Below, one piece after another: positions 1-11,111 of a stretch of 11,111 bases of DNA. The stretch lies in IMG/VR virus record IMGVR_UViG_2563366932_000013; one strand, given 5' to 3'. Every line of letters starts with the position of its first letter. The stretch's first letter is position 1. The notes below the pieces were generated by a model, which worked only from the letters and a program-made list of their open reading frames with translations, had not been told where the DNA came from and made no database searches. A program made the position numbers and the translations under genes. This stretch comes from a virus (Duplodnaviria > Heunggongvirae > Uroviricota > Caudoviricetes).

Positions 1-1158
1 ATGCTCACCGTTAAGCAGATTGAAGCAGCAAAGCCGAAAGAAAAACCATACCGCCTACTCGATGGTAATGGCCTGTACCTTTATGTCCCTGTATCAGGGA
101 AAAAGGTATGGCAGCTTCGCTACAAGATTGACGGTAAGGAGAAAATCCTGACCGTCGGAAAATATCCACTTATGACTTTGCAGGAGGCAAGAGATAAAGC
201 ATGGACCGCGAGGAAAGACATCTCGGTTGGCATCGATCCGGTAAAAGCGAAAAAGGCTTCGTCTAACAACAATTCCTTTAGTGCGATTTACAAGGAATGG
301 TACGAGCACAAGAAGCAAGTCTGGTCAGTAGGCTATGCAACTGAACTTGCAAAAATGTTTGATGACGACATTTTACCTATCATCGGCGGCCTTGAAATTC
401 AGGATATTGAGCCGATGCAACTGCTGGAAGTAATCCGCAGATTTGAAGATCGCGGTGCAATGGAGCGAGCCAACAAAGCCCGCAGAAGATGCGGCGAGGT
501 TTTCCGTTACGCTATTGTCACTGGTAGGGCTAAATATAACCCGGCACCTGACCTTGCTGACGCCATGAAGGGATACCGCAAGAAGAACTTCCCGTTTCTT
601 CCTGCAGACCAGATCCCTGCATTCAACAAAGCACTGGCAACATTTTCAGGAAGTATCGTATCGCTCATTGCGACCAAAGTTTTACGCTACACAGCCCTAA
701 GAACGAAAGAGCTTCGTTCCATGCTATGGAAGAACGTCGATTTTGAAAACAGGATTATCACCATCGACGCCAGTGTGATGAAGGGACGCAAAATTCATGT
801 GGTCCCGATGTCAGACCAGGTGGTTGAACTTCTCACTACGCTAAGCTCCATCACCAAACCAGTATCAGAGTTTGTTTTTGCCGGGCGCAACGATAAGAAG
901 AAGCCAATCTGCGAGAACGCGGTTCTACTTGTGATCAAACAAATCGGCTATGAGGGTCTAGAAAGCGGTCACGGATTCAGGCATGAATTCAGCACGATTA
1001 TGAACGAGCACGAATGGCCTGCTGACGCTATTGAAGTGCAACTGGCACATGCCAACGGCGGATCTGTGCGCGGTATTTACAACCATGCTCAGTATCTCGA
1101 TAAGCGCAGAGAAATGATGCAGTGGTGGGCGGATTGGCTTGATGAGAAGGTAGAGTGA
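1..1158 (+). CDS. int: Tyrosine integrase, P4-type (N-terminal arm-binding domain of the DUF4102 kind)
   Basis: 385-aa ORF from ATG at 1 to TGA at 1156-1158. N-terminus AKPKEKPYRLLDGNGLYLYVPVSGKKVWQLRY matches the P4-family integrase arm-binding signature as I recall it. C-terminal part has HGFRHEF and a tyrosine near the C-terminus (IYNHAQY), as expected for tyrosine recombinases. Confidence 0.9.
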   Translation: MLTVKQIEAAKPKEKPYRLLDGNGLYLYVPVSGKKVWQLRYKIDGKEKILTVGKYPLMTLQEARDKAWTARKDISVGIDPVKAKKASSNNNSFSAIYKEWYEHKKQVWSVGYATELAKMFDDDILPIIGGLEIQDIEPMQLLEVIRRFEDRGAMERANKARRRCGEVFRYAIVTGRAKYNPAPDLADAMKGYRKKNFPFLPADQIPAFNKALATFSGSIVSLIATKVLRYTALRTKELRSMLWKNVDFENRIITIDASVMKGRKIHVVPMSDQVVELLTTLSSITKPVSEFVFAGRNDKKKPICENAVLLVIKQIGYEGLESGHGFRHEFSTIMNEHEWPADAIEVQLAHANGGSVRGIYNHAQYLDKRREMMQWWADWLDEKVE

Positions 1159-1309
1159 TCCGCCTTAACAACTATCGAAGAGCACAAAGCCTTGTGTGTC
1201 TCATAGGCTATGAAACAATCATTTTACATGGTTACTTCACTACTTCCGCACAATATGATATCGTTCACAATCTAAAAACATTAATAATTTATCCATTACC
1301 GCGGTTAAT

Positions 1310-1336
1310 GCCCGTCGCTTCCAACGGGCTTTTTTG
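1310..1336 (+). terminator. Rho-independent terminator downstream of int
   Basis: Perfect 6-bp stem GCCCGT (1310-1315) / ACGGGC (1324-1329) with an 8-nt loop, followed by TTTTTT (1330-1335), about 150 nt after the int stop. Confidence 0.5.
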
Positions 1337-1397
1337 TAAATTATATTTTTATTACCTTATATTAATATTGGTAATATGTCTGCATGATGTTTTATAT

Positions 1398-2174
1398 TTA
1401 TTGCGTGAGCTTCGCATGATAGCTGGAGCATCTCTTGTCATCACTAATTAGCTCCGCTTTATCCGTTCTTGCCCATATTATATTTCTTTTTATTATTTTT
1501 GCTGGATTACCGGCTGCTGCACACATAGATGGCACATCTTTAGTTACAATACTCCCATACCCAATGACAGATCCGCTTCCAACAGATACTCCTTTCATTA
1601 TAGAGACATTTCTCCCTACCCATACGTAACTAGATATAATGATATCTTTTGCCCAATTAATCCTTTTTTTGCTATGAATATCAAATATAGGATGCCCATC
1701 TGATGCACGCAAAATAACATCTCTTGCTATCATGCAGTCATGGCCAATTGTAACATTGCACTTATCAGTGACGACTTCAAAACCTGCACCTATTGTCGTT
1801 CTTCTACCGATAATAACTTTTGAACCTTTTGTTGCGACAATATCACCTTTAATCTTACTGTTTTTATGTATTCTTACGTAATTATTATCACCCCTAAATA
1901 TTACGGTAAGCCATCGACACTCAACATCATCTTCTATAATAAGTTTGTTATTGTTTCCATTGAACTGAACTTTATTCTCTTTGCTATTTACAAGATCTCC
2001 ACATACAAAAACATTACCTGACCCATTATCATCAACGGAAAACGAGTCTTGAGTCTTGAGTCTTGAGTCTTGAGTCTTGAGTCTTGAGTCTTGAGTCTTG
2101 AGTCTTGAGTCTTGAGTCTTGAGTCTTGAGTCTTGAGTCTTGAGTCTTGAGTCTTGAGTCTTGAGTCTTAACAT
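1398..2174 (-). CDS. neuO: NeuO-like polysialic acid O-acetyltransferase (hexapeptide-repeat acyltransferase with N-terminal RLKTQDS heptad repeats)
   Basis: 258-aa ORF, ATG = complement of 2172-2174. C-terminal half (VWVGRNVSIMKGVSVGSGSVIGYGSIVTKDVPSMCAAAGNPAKIIK) is typical of left-handed beta-helix hexapeptide acyltransferases. N-terminus is ML followed by (RLKTQDS)x6 encoded by the AAGACTC tract, matching what I recall of K1 NeuO carried by prophage CUS-3. Putative SD AGGA about 5 nt upstream of the ATG. Confidence 0.85.
   Translation of the reverse strand: MLRLKTQDSRLKTQDSRLKTQDSRLKTQDSRLKTQDSRLKTQDSFSVDDNGSGNVFVCGDLVNSKENKVQFNGNNNKLIIEDDVECRWLTVIFRGDNNYVRIHKNSKIKGDIVATKGSKVIIGRRTTIGAGFEVVTDKCNVTIGHDCMIARDVILRASDGHPIFDIHSKKRINWAKDIIISSYVWVGRNVSIMKGVSVGSGSVIGYGSIVTKDVPSMCAAAGNPAKIIKRNIIWARTDKAELISDDKRCSSYHAKLTQ
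2044..2169 (-). repeat. Perfect tandem heptanucleotide repeat, (AAGACTC)x18 on the coding strand (GAGTCTT on +), inside the neuO 5-prime coding region
   Basis: Counted directly: 126 bp from 2044 to 2169 is 18 uninterrupted copies of GAGTCTT. 126 is divisible by 3, so the tract keeps the downstream acetyltransferase domain in frame with the ATG at 2174. Confidence 0.95.
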
Positions 2175-2190
2175 ATTAGTATCCTACGTT

Positions 2191-2219
2191 ATTTTACCAC
2201 TAGTTACTTTTCTTGTCAT
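2191..2219 (-). promoter_or_regulatory. Putative sigma70 promoter for neuO with extended -10
   Basis: On the minus strand: -35 ATGACA (complement of 2214-2219), 17-nt spacer, TGg-TAAAAT extended -10 (complement of 2191-2199), about 17 nt upstream of the neuO ATG. Hexamer matching only; no experimental support. Confidence 0.4.
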
Positions 2220-2327
2220 TAAAAAGCATTTAAATTTTTATATTTAATTTCGTTGACGTCAATGTTTTTTGCCAATGTACTTACTTCTTTATGTGATCAG
2301 TTCATATTTTTGACGCCAACGAAACAT

Positions 2328-5273
2328 TTAGTGCTTCCCTTCTATTAAGTCTAACCTAGCTTTTATTCTTTCTATTTCTCTGCGCTGCCATGCTGCCTCG
2401 ATATAGAATAAGAGATCAGGTCTGACCCCCCATCTAGATCCTGCTGGCGTTATTTCAACGCGCTCAATGATGTCTTCCATTACCATCACTGGATTATCAT
2501 CCTCATCAACAATGATGCTCCCGTCATTATCAGTCAGCGGCATTTCCCTTTGGCCAGTAATGACGTCATCATATACTGCGGGATAATCGTCATAGCAAAG
2601 AAAGGCATAGCGGCATGTTGTGCTTTCTTCTTCCATGAGTCCGTGAGAAATAAGAACATCACGAAGTTGCTGCGCGATTACACCATGATGTATCCTCGCC
2701 CCTTCTTCCCCCTTTATAGCGACAGCGTTCAGCCATTTATAAGCGATATACCTGACGTCACCCCAGGCATCCAGCAATGTTTCGTCAGGAGAGACCGGCT
2801 CTGTCTTTAATGTTCCGTCACTGGTAACCACAGGATTGGAGCCAAGATAAACTATCGAGAACCTGTTTCCCGGACCACCAAGAGCATTTACATTATCAAG
2901 ATAAGGTTTAACATCTCCGTTCTCAAAAAGATGTTCGAGTGCGTTATATACCGCGCGACGTGGAGTACTGCTTCTGGAACCATGCAACGTTATCATTGCA
3001 CCATCTGCTGAAGACGTTGTTTCACCGCCGCTAACGATTAATCTCTGAGCGGTAACATCATCAGACGGTACTTTCTTCGCAATAATGGCGTAATTACCCT
3101 CAAGTTTGACTTCCGCGCGAACTTGTCCTGATGTACCTGCATGGACAGTCAGTGACTGGACGGCAACATCATCTGTGAAATCAACGGGTACAGGAACCGT
3201 CCTCACGCCTGACGTCGACATAAAAGTAGGAAGCGTTCTGTTAGGAGTGGCTCCGTAGACAAAATCCCTTGAAACAAATTCTTCCTGTTTAATTTTCACC
3301 CTGAAACAATACAAATCAGCCGGGTGACCATCGTGAACATAAGGATATTTTCTGTTGTTATCCCCTATGCTCCATGGGTTTAGAAAGTCTTCCCCACCGA
3401 AAATGTAGTACAGCCAGTTGTCTTTGATACAAACTGAACCAACACCAACCGCAGAGTTAACTATTCCGCCCTGATAAATCTGATCAGTAACATTAACCCA
3501 CTCTACATTATCCAGACTCCACTCATTGACGTTAACTCTGGTCATAAATGTTCTTGGATAGTTTCCTGCATAACGGTTATCAGGTTCTCCTCCTTCCCAC
3601 TCACCAAATGCGCGCTCACTGCCAAAAATAATCAGCTCATCGCCAACTTTGGCAAAAGGAAGGTTTGAGTGATGAACATTATTTGGGAAGCGAAGAGAAT
3701 TCCATGATGTACCTAAATCAGAGCTTCTGTGCAATGAACTACCGGGTTGAGTACTTAATGTCCCCCTGGTCGTCAGATACAGAATGCCATCATAATATTT
3801 TACACATGGCTCAGATGCATTCGCCTCATATTCTGCAGGTATGCGTCTGCGAACAAAGCTACCAGGAGAACCGAAAGCATCAGAGAAATAGAGTATCCCA
3901 AGCTCGCGTGGACCAATATCACCATTATGGTAGCCAACAGCAAAACTGTTATCGCTAATCGTCGCAAAACTGTGAATCTCAGTAACAGGAGTGCTTCCGT
4001 CAACAAAAGAAGGAATAGTTCCAAGACTGGTTTTTCTCCATGGTGACGAGTGAAATGATGTACCAAAACTCCAGTATCTACCCTCGTTATTCTGATCCAC
4101 ATCCTGGGTATTTTGCGTCGTAACTGTAAAAGTATTTTTATCAATAACAGTAGTCACCGTCATATTCCCGGTAACACCTGTAACACCAGAGTTTGAGAAG
4201 TTGACAAAATCACCAGCAAATAATCCGTGATCAGTAATGCGAATATAAGCGACTTGCTGATTTGCTGCTTTCGTTATACCACCATAAACGCGAAGGCTGC
4301 GACTCATTGGGCGATCCCACAACTCTGCAACCTGCAGTTTATTTCCGCTCACGGTCCGCGTCTCAATTACAGCAAAAAGGCGATTTCTGACAACCCCCAT
4401 ACTCATGCAGTGATAGTTAACTGTGGGATAGTTTTCATGTAAATCTGTAAGCCATTCCGGCGTTGTCCAGGTCTTCCCGTCATCTCCTGAGCGAACCCAT
4501 GCAACATGGAGGTTATTTACACCATGGCGGTCTCCAGCCATAAAAGGCGCATAGATGACATTGTCATATACAAACGTTTTATCCTGCGTCCAGGCGTTGT
4601 ACCACGGTGTATCTGTAATTTTAAATAACTCTCCCTGGATAAAATCTTCAGAAACATAAAAAAGAGGCTGACCCGGTATTCTCTCAAATAAAAAACGAGC
4701 ATTTTTAAATCGACTGACATCTGGAAGAGTTGATACTTTAAAAGTAAGCCCTCGCCCATCTATCTTTTCACCACCTGTTGCAACAGAAAGTAATTCTGAT
4801 AGAGCTGATGTATCATCATGAACACCATCACCAATAGCCCCCCAACCTCTTACATCATAACTGTCTCTCCATCTTGCTATCTGAAGTTTTGGGTATTTAT
4901 TCGCTCCATCTGGGTCTTCTAATTGCTGCCGTAGTTGATCAGGATCATACTTCAGCACATTCTGGAAATAGAACTGCTGTACGCCATACGCATCGTACAC
5001 AGCCATAGAATGGCCTTGCACAGTTACGAACTTGGCAATCCGTCCGTTATATACAGGGTAACCAGCAGCGTTAATGATGATTGGTTGCGAAACAGGAACG
5101 TGAGAGCCGTCTTCGTTCTCTACATAAACCTGAATCCGGTTTTCAGGATTTACCGGGTCAGTGTCAATTTTACCGATATAAATTTTGCCATTGGCTACGG
5201 CTTTAAAAGAACGCGCCATAGTGAAGAGTTGCGAAGGCATCGATACAATCACATTGGCTGTAATGTCTGTCAT
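2328..5273 (-). CDS. Tailspike endosialidase (endo-N-acetylneuraminidase) with P22 gp9-like head-binding N-terminal domain and C-terminal intramolecular chaperone-like domain
   Basis: 981-aa ORF, ATG = complement of 5271-5273, SD GGAG 8 nt upstream. First ~115 aa ([43 protein letters not shown]...VLKYDPDQ) closely match the P22 tailspike head-binding domain as I remember it. Two sialidase Asp-box motifs ([16 protein letters not shown]). C-terminus (...[10 protein letters not shown]...[29 protein letters not shown]) resembles the autoproteolytic chaperone domain of endosialidase tailspikes. Confidence 0.85.
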
Positions 5274-5330
5274 TTAATTTGCTCCAGATGCAAAGAATCG
5301 CCGCAGCATGGCCACGGTGAATTTTGGGCA

Positions 5331-5354
5331 TAAAAAAACCCAGCCGAAGCTGGG
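5331..5354 (-). terminator. Rho-independent terminator (minus strand) between the upstream gene stub and the tailspike gene
   Basis: Read on the minus strand: stem CCCAGC/GCTGGG (5339-5344 and 5349-5354) with a 4-nt loop, followed by a 7-nt U tract (complement of A run 5332-5338). Confidence 0.5.
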
Positions 5355-5373
5355 TCGTTGCGTTGGTTATCTG

Positions 5374-5582
5374 TCAGTAATTATGTACTGAAGGAGGTAA
5401 TTCTTTATTCTTAAGTCTCATCCATGCGGAAAGATTCGTTGGTCCGTCTGGCTCATTGATATCAACATCTCGTGTGTGATTGATTAAAACGTCTCTCGCC
5501 ATATCGATAATACGGGAGAACTCATAACCGCAGTCATGACATCTGCCGGAATAGTTCGATTGAATTTGTTTTAGCGCCGGAT
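5374..5582 (-). pseudogene. 3-prime fragment (about 69 codons) of a gene whose 5-prime part was lost at the IS911 junction
   Basis: The six-frame ORF 5374..5631 runs into the IS: its first 16 codons are IS-end sequence, so only the C-terminal portion ([32 protein letters not shown]...SVHNY) is non-IS DNA. I do not recognise the family. Confidence 0.45.
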
Positions 5583-5654
5583 TGAAGTGGTTTACTGAAT
5601 TTGGCCACCTGAACAGAGGTGATATGCTCACCTCAGAACAACACAGGTGCCATA

Positions 5655-6802
<1,148 letters not shown>

Positions 6803-6832
6803 CTCGGTGGCCAGTTTTTGTTGACCACTTCA

Positions 6833-7003
6833 ATGCAACAGTTCGCTATTGCAGGGGCGGCATCGGTTCGCCCTTTCAACCCGATTTTATCGGTACAGCA
6901 TTCACGAAAAAACATTTTAACCGGAGCAGACTTTAAACAACCAAGAATGAAAAGCTTGCTCGAAAAGCTTTGGGATATTTTGAAACAACAAGGCCGTCCA
7001 TGA
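6833..7003 (+). CDS. cIII: cIII-like protein
   Basis: 56-aa ORF whose ATG (6833-6835) immediately follows the IS right end. N-terminus MQQFAIAG resembles lambda CIII MQYAIAG, and a central SLLE...DIL.Q.G.P stretch is similar. It sits first in an operon followed by erf, as in lambdoid/P22 pL operons. Confidence 0.5.
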   Translation: MQQFAIAGAASVRPFNPILSVQHSRKNILTGADFKQPRMKSLLEKLWDILKQQGRP

Positions 7004-7158
7004 GTTTTACGGATAACTGGTCAGACGAAGAATTCATTCGTCAGATAAAAGAATTAATCGGTAACGAAGGAGATATTCATGTCACTTGCAACCACAGTGA
7101 AGGAGAGCAAGTTACAGAGACGCATGTACACGCAGAAAGCTCTCTGGTATCGCCATAA
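7000..7158 (+). CDS. Small hypothetical protein (52 aa) at the position that kil occupies in the P22 pL operon
   Basis: ATG at 7000 overlaps the cIII-like stop (ATGA). Acidic small protein MSFTDNWSDEEFIRQIKELIGNEGDIHV... Positional inference only; the sequence is not recognised. Confidence 0.4.
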   Translation: MSFTDNWSDEEFIRQIKELIGNEGDIHVTCNHSEGEQVTETHVHAESSLVSP

Positions 7159-7259
7159 TGGTGACCGCGAAGGAATGCGGGTATGCCTTAATTTGTCCCG
7201 AGTCGAAGTATTAAATCAGCGTTATTTCCTTGGGCCGTGTCCATTCTGAGAGCAATCAT

Positions 7260-7865
7260 ATGAGCAAAGAATTTTACGCAAGACTGGCAGCTATTCAGGA
7301 GAATCTGAACGCGCCAAAGAATCAGTACAACTCATTCGGCAAATATAAATACAGAAGCTGCGAAGATATTCTTGAAGGCGTTAAGCCGTTACTGAACGGT
7401 CTGTTTTTATCAATCAGCGATGAAGTTGTGTTGATTGGTGATCGGTATTACGTGAAAGCCACGGCAACTATTACCGATGGCGAAAACAGTCATACGGCAA
7501 CCGCTCTTGCACGAGAGGAAGAAAGCAAGAAAGGAATGGATTCTGCACAAGTTACGGGAGCTACAAGCTCTTATGCACGCAAGTATTGCCTCAATGGTTT
7601 GTTCGGCATTGATGATGCGAAAGATGCAGATACAGACGAGCATAAACATCAGCAGAACGCAGCAGCAAAGCAATCAAAACCATCACTTACACCTGAACAG
7701 GTTCTAAAAGCATTCACTGACGCAGCAATGCAGAAAAACACCGTAGAAGAGCTTAAACAGGCGTTCGCCAAAGCGTGGAAGATGCTCGAAGGGACGCCGG
7801 AGCAGCACAAAGCGCAGGACGTTTACAACATCAGACGAGACGAATTAGAAGGGGCAACTGCTTAA
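7260..7865 (+). CDS. erf: Erf single-strand annealing protein (essential recombination function)
   Basis: From ATG at 7260 the protein begins MSKEFYARLAAIQENLNAPKNQYNSFGKYKYRSCEDILEGVKPLL..., matching P22 Erf as I remember it almost residue for residue in the N-terminal domain. Stop TAA at 7863-7865. Confidence 0.9.
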   Translation: MSKEFYARLAAIQENLNAPKNQYNSFGKYKYRSCEDILEGVKPLLNGLFLSISDEVVLIGDRYYVKATATITDGENSHTATALAREEESKKGMDSAQVTGATSSYARKYCLNGLFGIDDAKDADTDEHKHQQNAAAKQSKPSLTPEQVLKAFTDAAMQKNTVEELKQAFAKAWKMLEGTPEQHKAQDVYNIRRDELEGATA

Positions 7866-8248
7866 TGGCACATTCGATTACAGTAAGACTAAACAAACCC
7901 GCAAGAGAGTTTCAGGGCGGGGAAAATATCGGATTCAACATCCGTGCTGGCGTTCAGTATTACGATCGCCAGACAAAAAAGAAAGAATGGACAAACTACA
8001 GCGCCGTTGTATTTGCCAAGCCGGGAGCGCAAGCGGATTACTATCGTAGCGTTCTGGTTGAAGGAGGCATTGTAGAAATTACCGGAGAAAACATCAGGGT
8101 TGATGTTTATCAGGGGCAAAATGGTCAATCAATCACTCTTGAATTACTGAATGCAAAGATTGGATTTGCAACTTCAGGAAACAGCCAACAGCAGCAAAGT
8201 AGCAATCATCAAAATAATCCTGAATACGACGATTCCATCCCATTCTGA
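7865..8248 (+). CDS. Phage SSB-like OB-fold protein with acidic C-terminal tail
   Basis: 127-aa ORF, ATG overlapping the erf stop (TAATG). Ends ...QQQQSSNHQNNPEYDDSIPF, echoing the E. coli SSB C-terminal tip DDDIPF preceded by a Gln-rich linker. The N-terminal part has an OB-fold-like pattern (EWTNYSAVVFAKPG...VEITGE). Confidence 0.65.
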   Translation: MAHSITVRLNKPAREFQGGENIGFNIRAGVQYYDRQTKKKEWTNYSAVVFAKPGAQADYYRSVLVEGGIVEITGENIRVDVYQGQNGQSITLELLNAKIGFATSGNSQQQQSSNHQNNPEYDDSIPF

Positions 8249-8271
8249 TTTAGAAAAATAAGGATTTAATT

Positions 8272-8568
8272 ATGCCAGCGCCTTTGTATGGTGCGGATGA
8301 CCCGCGCCGCTGTTCCGGCAATTCCGTATCGGAGGTGCTGGATAAATTCAGAAAAAACTACGATCGAATAATGTCTCTACCGCAGGAAACGAAAGAGGAA
8401 AAGGAATTTCGCCACTGTATATGGCTTGCAGAGAAAGAAGAACGCGAGCGAATTTACCAGACATCAATCCGACCATTCCGCAAAGCCACATATACCCACT
8501 TCCCTGAATATATCGACCCGCGCCTGCGTAATTACCGCTCACGCTATGGCGCTATCAGTAATGACTGA
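8272..8568 (+). CDS. Hypothetical protein (98 aa), basic and helical
   Basis: ORF with SD AAGGA 8 nt upstream of ATG 8272. Its position after erf/ssb and its size are similar to where anti-RecBCD abc genes lie in P22, but I cannot confirm this by sequence. Confidence 0.5.
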   Translation: MPAPLYGADDPRRCSGNSVSEVLDKFRKNYDRIMSLPQETKEEKEFRHCIWLAEKEERERIYQTSIRPFRKATYTHFPEYIDPRLRNYRSRYGAISND

Positions 8569-8662
8569 GGAATTTACCATGAGAGGACTTGCTTAAGAGA
8601 AAGAGTTTCGGTTCTGTTAATGACAACAAATATCTGAATGCGATGTGGCGGAGTGGGAAGAA

Positions 8663-9181
8663 ATGAAACAAATGTCACTAATTGAGATGGATGGTTTTCT
8701 GAAAGGTAAATGCATCCCAAGTGATTTAAAGGTTAACGAAACAAACGCTGAATACCTTGTCCGTAAGTTCGGTGAACTTGAATCAAAACTGGAAACGGCG
8801 TTGCGGGAGTGTAGTTCTGCTGGAATCACGATTGATAACCTTGAGGCTAAATGCGCGAAGATGGCTGCTGAAAATACCTCACTTAAGCAATCTGAGAAGG
8901 AATTTAATGACTTTTGTCGTGAGGAGTTTAGCGAATGGGAAGATGATGTTACTGAAACCCCAGCCACCGATGCTTTTCTGGCTGAAGTGCGGGCGCAGGG
9001 GGTGGATGCTGCTATAGAAGCTGCAAAAAATCTGGTGGCCCAAGAATATGAGTATAAGGATTTCAAAGCGGCGCAGAGTGATTGCTGTATGCACCCTGGT
9101 TCAGACCTGGTAGGGAAGGTTGAAATGACTGAGTGGTTAGTTGACTTTGCTGCCCAGCTTCGCAAAGGAGGCAACCAGTGA
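8663..9181 (+). CDS. Hypothetical protein (~172 aa), acidic, predicted helical/coiled-coil
   Basis: Long ORF in the same orientation as the operon. Start taken as ATG 8663; the track starts at the GTG at 8645, which is also possible. Not recognised. Confidence 0.5.
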   Translation: MKQMSLIEMDGFLKGKCIPSDLKVNETNAEYLVRKFGELESKLETALRECSSAGITIDNLEAKCAKMAAENTSLKQSEKEFNDFCREEFSEWEDDVTETPATDAFLAEVRAQGVDAAIEAAKNLVAQEYEYKDFKAAQSDCCMHPGSDLVGKVEMTEWLVDFAAQLRKGGNQ

Positions 9182-9477
9182 CTGTATGTCTTATTGATAA
9201 ACGTCGACGTGGGCAACAAATACCATCTGTTGAAATGCCGAATCACACATGGTTTTGCGTACTTGATATCGATGGTATGGATTCGTTGGTTGACACTCGT
9301 CATTACTGCGATACCGCAACAGCTACTCCGGCGAAAGCAAAGAAAATGGCTGCTCTGATAGAAAACTGGACTCCACCTGATGGTTGGTGCAATGGGAATG
9401 ATCGAGATTGGCACGAAAAAATGAAGGGCTATATCTGCGATTTTTTACGTAAATGCAACGGCTTCAGGGGGATGTGA
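9178..9477 (+). CDS. Hypothetical Cys-rich protein (99 aa)
   Basis: GTG start at 9178 overlapping the previous stop (GTGA), with a strong SD AAAGGAGG 6 nt upstream. Six cysteines. Not recognised. Confidence 0.5.
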   Translation: MTVCLIDKRRRGQQIPSVEMPNHTWFCVLDIDGMDSLVDTRHYCDTATATPAKAKKMAALIENWTPPDGWCNGNDRDWHEKMKGYICDFLRKCNGFRGM

Positions 9478-9478
9478 T

Positions 9479-10051
9479 ATGACCAAAATTAACTATCAGG
9501 CACTGCGTGAGGCGGCAGAACGTGCAATTCCGGCAATGGAACGCCTGTTAATGTTGCCAGTTGATGATGATTTGTTAAGTGAACAGGAACTTAAGGATTA
9601 CGGTGTGGATATTGATGCGCTCAACGCCTTCAAATTTCTGACCGGACCAGAAACCGTGCTGGCGCTGCTGGATGAACGGGAAAGAAACCAGCAATACATC
9701 AAACGCCGCGACCAGGAGAACGAGGAAATTGCGCTAACGGTAGGGAAGCTGCGCGTTGAGCTGGAAGCTGCAGAGAAGCGCATTGCAGAACTGGAAGCCG
9801 AACCTGTAAGCCAAACTTACAAGTTGAACGAGCTGTCGGGCAACTATCCGGTAACTCCGGATGGTTGGATAAGCTGTAGTGAGCGAATGCCCGCTCAAGA
9901 TGATTGGATTTTAATTTATTCAAAGCACGGCGAGTATATGGCAGGACAGGTACAAGGGGAATACGTGGAGTTGAGCGACGGCACTTTATCGTGGTTAGGG
10001 AACGCCTTGTACTGGATGCCTCTACCGGAACCGCCGCAGGAGGTTAATTGA
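9479..10051 (+). CDS. Ead/Ea22-like protein with C-terminal DUF551-like domain
   Basis: ATG 9479 with SD AGGGGGA. N-terminus MTKINYQALREAAERA and C-terminal W...SERMPAQDDWILIY...WMPLPEPP pattern resemble prophage Ead/Ea22-family DUF551 proteins as I recall them. Confidence 0.6.
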   Translation: MTKINYQALREAAERAIPAMERLLMLPVDDDLLSEQELKDYGVDIDALNAFKFLTGPETVLALLDERERNQQYIKRRDQENEEIALTVGKLRVELEAAEKRIAELEAEPVSQTYKLNELSGNYPVTPDGWISCSERMPAQDDWILIYSKHGEYMAGQVQGEYVELSDGTLSWLGNALYWMPLPEPPQEVN

Positions 10052-10245
10052 TGGTCTCCTTCGCGAAATATACGATTATTGACTGGATAGCATTCATTCA
10101 GGTTTTGCTCATCTGGTTTTATATGGCTTACAGGAGTGGACAGTGGATTGTCAGTGTAGCCTGTAGCAATGGATGGCGTTGGTGGAACCGAAAGAATAAA
10201 AAAAGCGCTGGCCTTGGCTTCGTTTTACGAAGCATTCAATCTTAA
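10051..10245 (+). CDS. Small hydrophobic protein (64 aa), one predicted transmembrane helix
   Basis: ATG 10051 overlapping the upstream stop, SD GGAGG 7 nt upstream. Hydrophobic stretch IIDWIAFIQVLLIWFYMAY followed by a Trp/Arg-rich tail. Confidence 0.4.
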   Translation: MVSFAKYTIIDWIAFIQVLLIWFYMAYRSGQWIVSVACSNGWRWWNRKNKKSAGLGFVLRSIQS

Positions 10246-10328
10246 CAGTCTTCAGCCTGGTTCTGTCGTTGTAGTCACCACTCAAAGCGGCATGACGATA
10301 CAAATTCACAAGCCAAAGGAGGAAGGTC

Positions 10329-10613
10329 GTGGCTAACCTGCAACTTGCCGTTAAAGGTGAATACTTCGATGCCATGATTCGCGGAGAGAAAACGGAAGAG
10401 TATCGCCTGTGTAATGACTACTGGAATAAGCGAATTATGTTCCGCGAGTATGACCGCCTGATTATCACAAAGGGATATCCGAAGCGCGACGATTCCAGCC
10501 GCAGAATTGACGTCCCGTATGACGGATATGAAATCAAGACAATCACACATCCGCACTTCGGCGATAAACCGGTAAAGGTGTTCGCTATAAAGGTGAATAT
10601 CGACAATGAATGA
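10329..10613 (+). CDS. ASCH / DUF3850-like (PUA-like beta-barrel) protein
   Basis: GTG start 10329 with a strong SD AAAGGAGGAAGG upstream. LQLAVKGEYFDAMIRGEKTEEYR... resembles ASCH-domain prophage proteins from memory. Confidence 0.5.
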   Translation: MANLQLAVKGEYFDAMIRGEKTEEYRLCNDYWNKRIMFREYDRLIITKGYPKRDDSSRRIDVPYDGYEIKTITHPHFGDKPVKVFAIKVNIDNE

Positions 10614-10614
10614 T

Positions 10615-10670
10615 AATCCTCGCACTCGCGGGGATTTCTTTTATCTGAACTCGCTACGGCGGGTTTTGTT
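10615..10670 (+). terminator. Tandem hairpin / U-tract terminator-like region after the ASCH-like gene
   Basis: Hairpin AATCCTCGC-ACTC-GCGGGGATT (10615-10636) followed by TCTTTTAT. A second short hairpin CTCGC-TACG-GCGGG (10650-10663) is followed by TTTTGTTTT. Confidence 0.4.
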
Positions 10671-10685
10671 TTATGGAGATGATAA

Positions 10686-10853
10686 ATGCACTTCCGAGTC
10701 ACAGGTGAATGGAATGGAGAGCCATTCAACAGAGTTATCGAAGCAGAGAACATCAACGACTGCTATGACCACTGGATGCTGTGGGCGCAGATAGCACATG
10801 CAGACGTAACTAATATTCGAATTGAAGAACTGAAAGAACACCAAGCCGCCTGA
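10686..10853 (+). CDS. Small hypothetical protein (55 aa)
   Basis: Not in the ORF track (below its length cut-off). ATG 10686 with SD GGAGA 6 nt upstream; hand-translated as MHFRVTGEWNGEPFNRVIEAENINDCYDHWMLWAQIAHADVTNIRIEELKEHQAA, stop TGA 10851-10853, ending inside a terminator hairpin. Confidence 0.4.
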   Translation: MHFRVTGEWNGEPFNRVIEAENINDCYDHWMLWAQIAHADVTNIRIEELKEHQAA

Positions 10854-10866
10854 TGGCGGTTTTTTA
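10844..10866 (+). terminator. Rho-independent terminator
   Basis: Stem AGCCGCC / GGCGGTT (10844-10850 and 10855-10861) with loop TGAT, followed by a T run to 10865. Confidence 0.55.
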
Positions 10867-10910
10867 TTGCCTGATTTGCAGGTTCGATTCCCTATTCGGA
10901 GATAGCACTC

Positions 10911-11111
10911 ATGCAACACGAACTACAACCTGATTCACTGGTTGATTTGAAATTCATCATGGCCGATACTGGCTTCGGTAAAACCTTCATCTATGACCGG
11001 ATTAAGTCCGGCGACCTGCCAAAAGCCAAAGTTATCCACGGGCGAGCAAGATGGTTATATCGTGACCATTGTGAATTCAAAAATAAGCTCTTAAGCCGCG
11101 CCAATGGGTAA
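10911..11111 (+). CDS. AlpA-family helix-turn-helix regulator / excisionase-like protein
   Basis: 66-aa ORF, ATG 10911 with SD GGAGA. LVDLKFIMADTGFGKTFIYDRIKSGDLPKAKVIHGRARWLYRDHCEF fits the AlpA / phage excisionase HTH pattern (recognition helix with TIY, then a basic wing with W). Stop TAA is the last three bases of the window. Confidence 0.7.
   Translation: MQHELQPDSLVDLKFIMADTGFGKTFIYDRIKSGDLPKAKVIHGRARWLYRDHCEFKNKLLSRANG

Follow-up and report, generated by a model that had tools for sequence, protein, structure and literature searches.

The question raised by this locus is whether an acetyltransferase gene with a heptanucleotide repeat just past its start codon is neuO of Escherichia coli K1 prophages or only resembles it, and whether its switch is still working in the prophage that carries it. 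The window, i.e. the whole stretch of 11,111 bases that was analyzed, contains an open reading frame of 258 aa with an ATG start on the minus strand (1398-2174). The original prediction had described it as a neuO-type locus with the architecture known for neuO on prophage CUS-3, and its coordinates, repeat unit, tract placement, and product length all proved correct when compared with the open reading frame and the output of Tandem Repeats Finder. We put the probability that it is neuO, through which the P22-like K1 prophage CUS-3 brings about lysogenic conversion, at about 95%, and no result spoke against this identification. Every defining feature at the level of sequence was looked for and found; the window gene is neuO itself rather than a look-alike. 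The neuO gene of prophage CUS-3 (E. coli K1 RS218) was reportedly described by Deszo and colleagues in 2005 and by King and colleagues in 2007. Everything found here agrees with what was published between 2005 and 2026. The observation thus holds but is already known: the gene, its mechanism, structure, distribution, and biological effects have been published, and there is nothing new about the gene itself.

The product was first compared with proteins of solved structure. NeuO (PDB 3JQY) was 100% identical to residues 17-258 of the open reading frame product (242 aligned residues, E = 9.7e-161), and the Pfam Hexapep family was detected (E = 1.1e-10), in agreement with the predicted hexapeptide-repeat acetyltransferase. 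The sole difference in the alignment was the number of RLKTQDS heptads, with six in the window and four in the crystal construct; the four derive from a synthetic non-repetitive sequence (Schulz et al. 2011, PMC3046976), whereas the six come from the natural variable-number tandem repeat (VNTR). As catalytic or conserved residues, the structure paper names Met134, His147, Trp171, Arg174, Trp220, and Arg222, with His147 and Trp171 as the catalytic pair in NeuO+12 numbering (PMC3046976). All are present in the window protein at the 3JQY number plus 14, i.e. as Met148, His161 (for His147), Trp185 (for Trp171), Arg188, Trp234, and Arg236. The second-best solved relative was OatWY, the capsule O-acetyltransferase of Neisseria meningitidis (E = 4.6e-31), and galactoside and maltose acetyltransferases ranked below. 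OatWY (serogroups W-135 and Y; PDB 2WLC-2WLG) is a homologous left-handed beta-helix sialate O-acetyltransferase that has active-site residues in common with NeuO (PMC3046976), but it lacks both the N-terminal heptad domain and the heptanucleotide VNTR and is encoded on the chromosome, whereas neuO is prophage-borne. NeuO is a trimeric left-handed beta-helix (hexapeptide-repeat) enzyme; according to the literature, it moves acetyl groups from acetyl-CoA onto O-7 or O-9 of the alpha-2,8-polysialic acid K1 capsule.

A single repeat array was detected by Tandem Repeats Finder in the whole window (2044-2169, minus strand; period 7, 18.0 copies, 100% matches, no indels, score 252), and the copies were also counted with a regular expression. 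A perfect heptamer array of 126 bp is far beyond chance. The coding strand reads ATG TT (AAGACTC)x18, with the ATG at 2174-2172 and the tract beginning 2 nt later, in line with the original prediction, which had placed it directly after the start codon. The published VNTR likewise lies 2 nt past the start codon; it has 2-93 copies, follows a multiple-of-three rule, and confers an activity that goes up with heptad number (PMC3046976). To this slippage-prone poly-psi switch we applied an in-silico series of 0-24 units. A full-length protein, with a length of 216 + 7n/3 aa, was obtained only when the copy number n was divisible by three. For n mod 3 = 1 a stop codon followed 4 codons past the tract and for n mod 3 = 2 after 21 codons; a single unit gained or lost from 18 thus left simulated peptides of 49 or 59 aa. 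The claim that copy changes other than multiples of three shift the frame was therefore borne out by simulation, in agreement with the published rule (PMC3046976). Because 18 is divisible by three, neuO is in frame in the window, i.e. phase ON, with six RLKTQDS heptads encoded. This call matters when the phenotype of a strain is to be read.

According to the literature, AAGACTC units are gained or lost by slipped-strand mispairing during replication, and copy numbers divisible by three alone keep the neuO frame. One RLKTQDS heptad of the N-terminal domain, which is disordered, takes three units, and catalytic efficiency has been shown to increase with heptad count; the tract therefore combines an ON/OFF switch with graded control of activity. 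Contingency loci built on simple sequences are found in Haemophilus and Neisseria, e.g. the tetranucleotide tracts in the lic1 and mod genes. They follow the same principle as neuO, in that slippage of an intragenic repeat shifts the frame and gives reversible ON/OFF states. In contrast to these loci, the 7-nt unit of neuO is unusual, its in-frame copies make a functional heptad domain that tunes activity, and the locus is mobile on a phage.

The surroundings of the gene are those of CUS-3. Over positions 1-5582, with int, neuO, and siaK1, the window shares 98.9% identity with CUS-3, a phage of E. coli RS218 (CP000711), which confirms the predicted prophage type by gene order as well as by identity. 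In the CUS-3 record, the tract between int and siaK1 is annotated as 'neuO, poly(psi) domain, 19 copies of AAGACTC'. The two elements share the same neuO, the tract 2 nt past the ATG, the order int-neuO-siaK1-ant, and an identical stretch of 161 nt upstream. They differ in that the record has 19 copies (OFF) and the window 18 (ON), and in that the ant gene of the window is cut by ISEc52, about 31 kb from mnt to kil are missing, and the early-left genes are mosaic. The int gene (1-1158, plus strand) encodes an intS-type, argW-specific tyrosine integrase of the CUS-3 prophage (Pfam Phage_integrase, Phage_int_M, and Arm-DNA-bind_3; match to CUS-3 int). As the window begins at the int ATG, it is the nearest genomes alone that show argW to be adjacent; CEA212U, the closest complete genome, has a tRNA-Arg gene 161 bp upstream of int. 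Downstream of int, a scan located a terminator-like hairpin with a T-run (1310-1329, plus strand), which on the neuO strand is a hairpin without a T-run after it.

Next to neuO, the siaK1 endosialidase tailspike gene (2328-5273, minus strand; match to CUS-3 siaK1) is intact and encodes 981 aa. The neighboring endosialidase of the original prediction is complete, and none of the six domains expected of it is lacking: Head_binding, End_N_terminal, End_beta_propel (E = 1e-233), End_beta_barrel, End_tail_spike, and Peptidase_S74. This capsule-degrading gene has stayed intact though all other virion genes of the prophage are deleted, and it is kept in a probable K1 host without a phage carrier. The neuO cassette (1159-2327) is AT-rich, as had been noted, with a GC content of 0.351, whereas int has 0.478 and the tailspike gene 0.442. 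No RNA family was found when the whole window was scanned against Rfam with gathering thresholds. In P22-like phages, lysogenic-conversion cassettes such as Sf6 oac and P22 gtrABC lie between int and the tailspike gene. Both slot and logic are those of neuO: the prophage alters the surface polysaccharide that its own tailspike recognizes. Sf6 Oac differs in being an integral-membrane acyltransferase-3 protein that targets the O-antigen and has no frameshifting repeat, whereas NeuO belongs to the hexapeptide-repeat enzymes, is cytoplasmic, and is switched by a VNTR.

A K1 status of the host is suggested by CEA212U, which has 8 rather than 18 copies of the repeat. Its K1 locus comprises kpsFEDUCS followed by neuS (alpha-2,8-polysialyltransferase), neuE, neuC, neuA, neuB, and neuD, and the kps/neu cluster is situated at the distal end of the pheV island. 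For the bacterium, NeuO has been described to give protection against K1-specific phages and neutrophils together with greater sensitivity to serum (PMC13001214, PMC9659370).

Tract length was then followed across public genomes. A megablast search with positions 1350-2330 against 5426 complete E. coli genomes returned 178 with the locus, 158 of them covering at least 80% of the query. In a sample of 50 of these 158, the spans of full-length matches corresponded to 3-57 copies (21 ON and 29 OFF), bearing in mind that assemblies give consensus copy numbers, in which errors may occur. H87 and H91 were excluded from the copy-number table, their spans not being multiples of 7. Direct counts agreed with the span arithmetic for CUS-3 (19 copies), CEA212U (8), 19AR1321 (16), and MS7163 (21). 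Published fragment analysis of MS7163 likewise gave 21 copies, and a 2026 survey of 64 genomes reported 3-53 copies with 65.6% OFF (PMC13001214). At the level of public genomes the tract is thus far from invariant. It varies between lineages and within them: the near-identical New Zealand sister isolates 19AR1321 and 19AR0253 share the locus structure and have 16 and 17 copies, and CEA212U and the window have 8 and 18. Four other complete genomes of the sample, among them CE10 and APEC O18, also have 18 copies. CE10 (locus L007) carries Ser for Leu as second codon (ATGTC... vs. ATGTT...) and two Val to Ile positions, and the tailspike gene beside its neuO is annotated as frameshifted.

Expression of neuO would be expected to start from a promoter of its own in the AT-rich spacer between the tailspike gene and neuO (153 bp, GC 0.275). 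A candidate promoter in the cassette had been part of the original prediction. A consensus match does exist: the best sigma-70 candidate, ATGACA-17-TAAAAT with the TG of an extended -10 element (2191-2219, minus strand), matches 10 of 12 consensus positions. The second candidate, TTGACG-17-AAAAAT (2234-2262, minus strand; 9 of 12), has its -35 element inside the palindrome TTGACGTCAA. Promoter-like matches were no commoner in the region than in shuffled sequence (6 vs. 5.6 +/- 2.2), and for this reason the scan cannot alone support a specific promoter. A Shine-Dalgarno-like AGGA, read from the sequence 7 nt upstream of the ATG (2182-2185, minus strand), is invariant in the window, CE10, MS7163, and CUS-3. 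Over the 161 nt that precede the ATG, the window, MS7163, and CUS-3/RS218 do not differ from one another, and CE10 differs from the window at one upstream position (-1) as well as at +5 within the gene. For lysogens of MS7163, RS218, and CE10, neuO activity or transcripts have been reported (PMC13001214, PMC3046976, PMC9659370). In CE10, transcription was DsdC-dependent; DsdC bound the upstream spacer in vitro, and the spacer was treated as the neuO promoter region (PMC9659370).

The spacer also contains a 15-nt inverted repeat (2248-2324, minus strand; arms 2248-2262 and 2310-2324, 93% complementary) that begins 4 nt past the tailspike stop codon. In minus-strand RNA it is predicted to form a long-range stem of 16 bp (-30.5 kcal/mol, z = -3.6). 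It holds the perfect palindrome mentioned above and a near copy, TTGGCGTCAA; the motif TTGRCGTCAA occurs three times vs. 0.1 expected. One candidate neuO -35 element is overlapped by the repeat. The repeat might mark the end of a transcript, serve in processing, or be bound by a regulator.

Completeness was the only feature of CUS-3, a P22-like genome of about 40 kb, that the window did not share, as the prophage is a remnant of 11 kb. The 3′ fragment of the antirepressor gene ant (5374-5582, minus strand; P22_AR_C domain) is cut by an insertion sequence, and the CUS-3 match ends at 5582. It is followed by ISEc52 of the IS3 family (5584-6832, plus strand), with HTH_Tnp_1 and rve domains, a RefSeq annotation in CEA212U, and the terminal inverted repeats TGAAGTGG...CCACTTCA. 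Directly after ISEc52 comes a small gene (171 bp) upstream of erf, within a segment of retained early-left genes (6833-11111, plus strand), namely erf (7260-7865), the anti-RecBCD gene abc2 (8272-8568), an ead/Ea22-like gene (9479-10051), a torI/xis-like gene (10911-11111), and others (Pfam ERF, Anti-RecBCD_p2, DUF7739, and Ead_Ea22; CEA212U annotation). Compared with the 40.2-kb map of CUS-3, about 31 kb are absent, from the 5′ part of ant through the injection, head, terminase, lysis, Q, nin, replication, and immunity genes to kil. The early-left segment is a mosaic of HK633, HF4s, Sf6, and Stx-phage alleles, which match it at 95-97% identity and better than CUS-3 does. A search of CUS-3 with the junction after ISEc52 gave no match within 3 mismatches, and the 32 nt just after the element were unmatched there, because the segment is a different mosaic allele; the right endpoint of the deletion was therefore placed by gene order only, at the 171-bp gene upstream of erf. 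The complete element of CEA212U, located between argW and dsdC, is about 11 kb long.

Among the genomes compared, ISEc52 interrupts ant at three different junctions: in the window and CEA212U, in 19AR1321 and 19AR0253, and in ESBLEC_HM50 (loci L002, L006, L009, and L010). In ESBLEC_HM50 it lies 24 bp from the site in the window, and the remaining prophage is intact. A single ancestral insertion shared with ESBLEC_HM50 was rejected on account of this distance. Both the left and right junctions of 19AR1321 and 19AR0253 differ from those of the window, and these isolates have a large deletion of their own. Since the junctions differ, the ISEc52 events were independent, and int, neuO, and the endosialidase gene were retained every time.

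Three other explanations were weighed against an ON-phase neuO that would be functional in this remnant. Two of them touch on its state. The in-frame count of 18 would be an assembly artefact if the repeat had been collapsed or mis-counted, which would leave the true phase of the source strain open. A perfect repeat of 126 bp is hard to size from short reads, and CEA212U, 100% identical to the window outside the tract, has 8 copies. Real phase variation yields just such differences, though, and 18 copies recur in the four complete genomes mentioned above, so that we consider an artefact improbable; the identity of the locus is in any case independent of the exact count. The gene might also be a silent relic in a decaying prophage, neither expressed nor selected any longer. 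The IS-bordered deletion that cuts the prophage to about 11 kb would fit with this, as would the excess of OFF states (over half of the sampled genomes) and the 8 out-of-frame copies of CEA212U, where neuO is annotated only as a 111-aa fragment. Against it stand an open reading frame that is intact, in frame, and without substitution relative to the crystallized enzyme, a perfect and uninterrupted tract, and an upstream region identical to that of active strains. Moreover, OFF states are expected of a contingency locus and are no sign of decay, and the genomes carrying remnants differ in copy number (8, 16, 17, and 18), which argues that the switch is still turning over. We regard a silent relic as very improbable.

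The third explanation concerns the source of the transcript, which in the remnant might come mainly from read-through on the minus strand (from the tailspike gene, the truncated ant, or the end of the IS) instead of a promoter belonging to neuO. The gene lies 153 bp downstream of the tailspike gene on the same strand, the scan found no canonical terminator between the two on the minus strand, and the promoter-like hexamers are not statistically enriched. Yet the deletion took away the late promoter and Q as well as the 5′ part of ant together with the ant promoter, so that no known strong source of read-through is left; a stable stem also follows right after the tailspike stop codon, and the published work assigns the promoter region, with DsdC binding in vitro, to the spacer (PMC9659370). 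Read-through as the main source hence appears unlikely. The deletion of the late operon and Q has a further consequence: any neuO expression in the remnant must be independent of phage late transcription. This independence had been predicted, and it gains indirect support from the 161 nt upstream that the window shares with MS7163 and RS218, two strains with documented O-acetylation.

Of lesser weight, though the one less familiar feature of the locus, are the remnants bordered by an IS. A literature search for CUS-3 remnants found none. Two of the three ISEc52 junctions go along with independent deletions of about 30 kb, each leaving an 11-kb remnant with int, neuO, siaK1, and the erf-torI segment. 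Tentatively, and with more doubt than confidence, this pattern may mean that ISEc52 insertions in ant repeatedly degrade CUS-3 and that independent deletions of about 30 kb then always spare int, neuO, the intact endosialidase gene, and erf-torI. neuO would thereby have turned into a contingency gene that is fixed in the host but still phase-variable, on a small, perhaps excisable element about 9 kb from its regulator gene dsdC. The sole and modest addition to existing knowledge is the persistence of a switch that goes on varying in IS-truncated remnants unable to make phage.

With an IntS-type integrase gene at one end of the remnant and a TorI/xis-like gene at the other, the 11-kb element may still excise from argW; both attachment sites, attL and attR, are located immediately beyond the ends of the window. 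Immediately outside attR, just past the right end of the window, is dsdC (26229-27164 of locus L002). The distance between dsdC and neuO is about 9 kb in the remnant vs. about 38 kb in a full-length CUS-3 lysogen.
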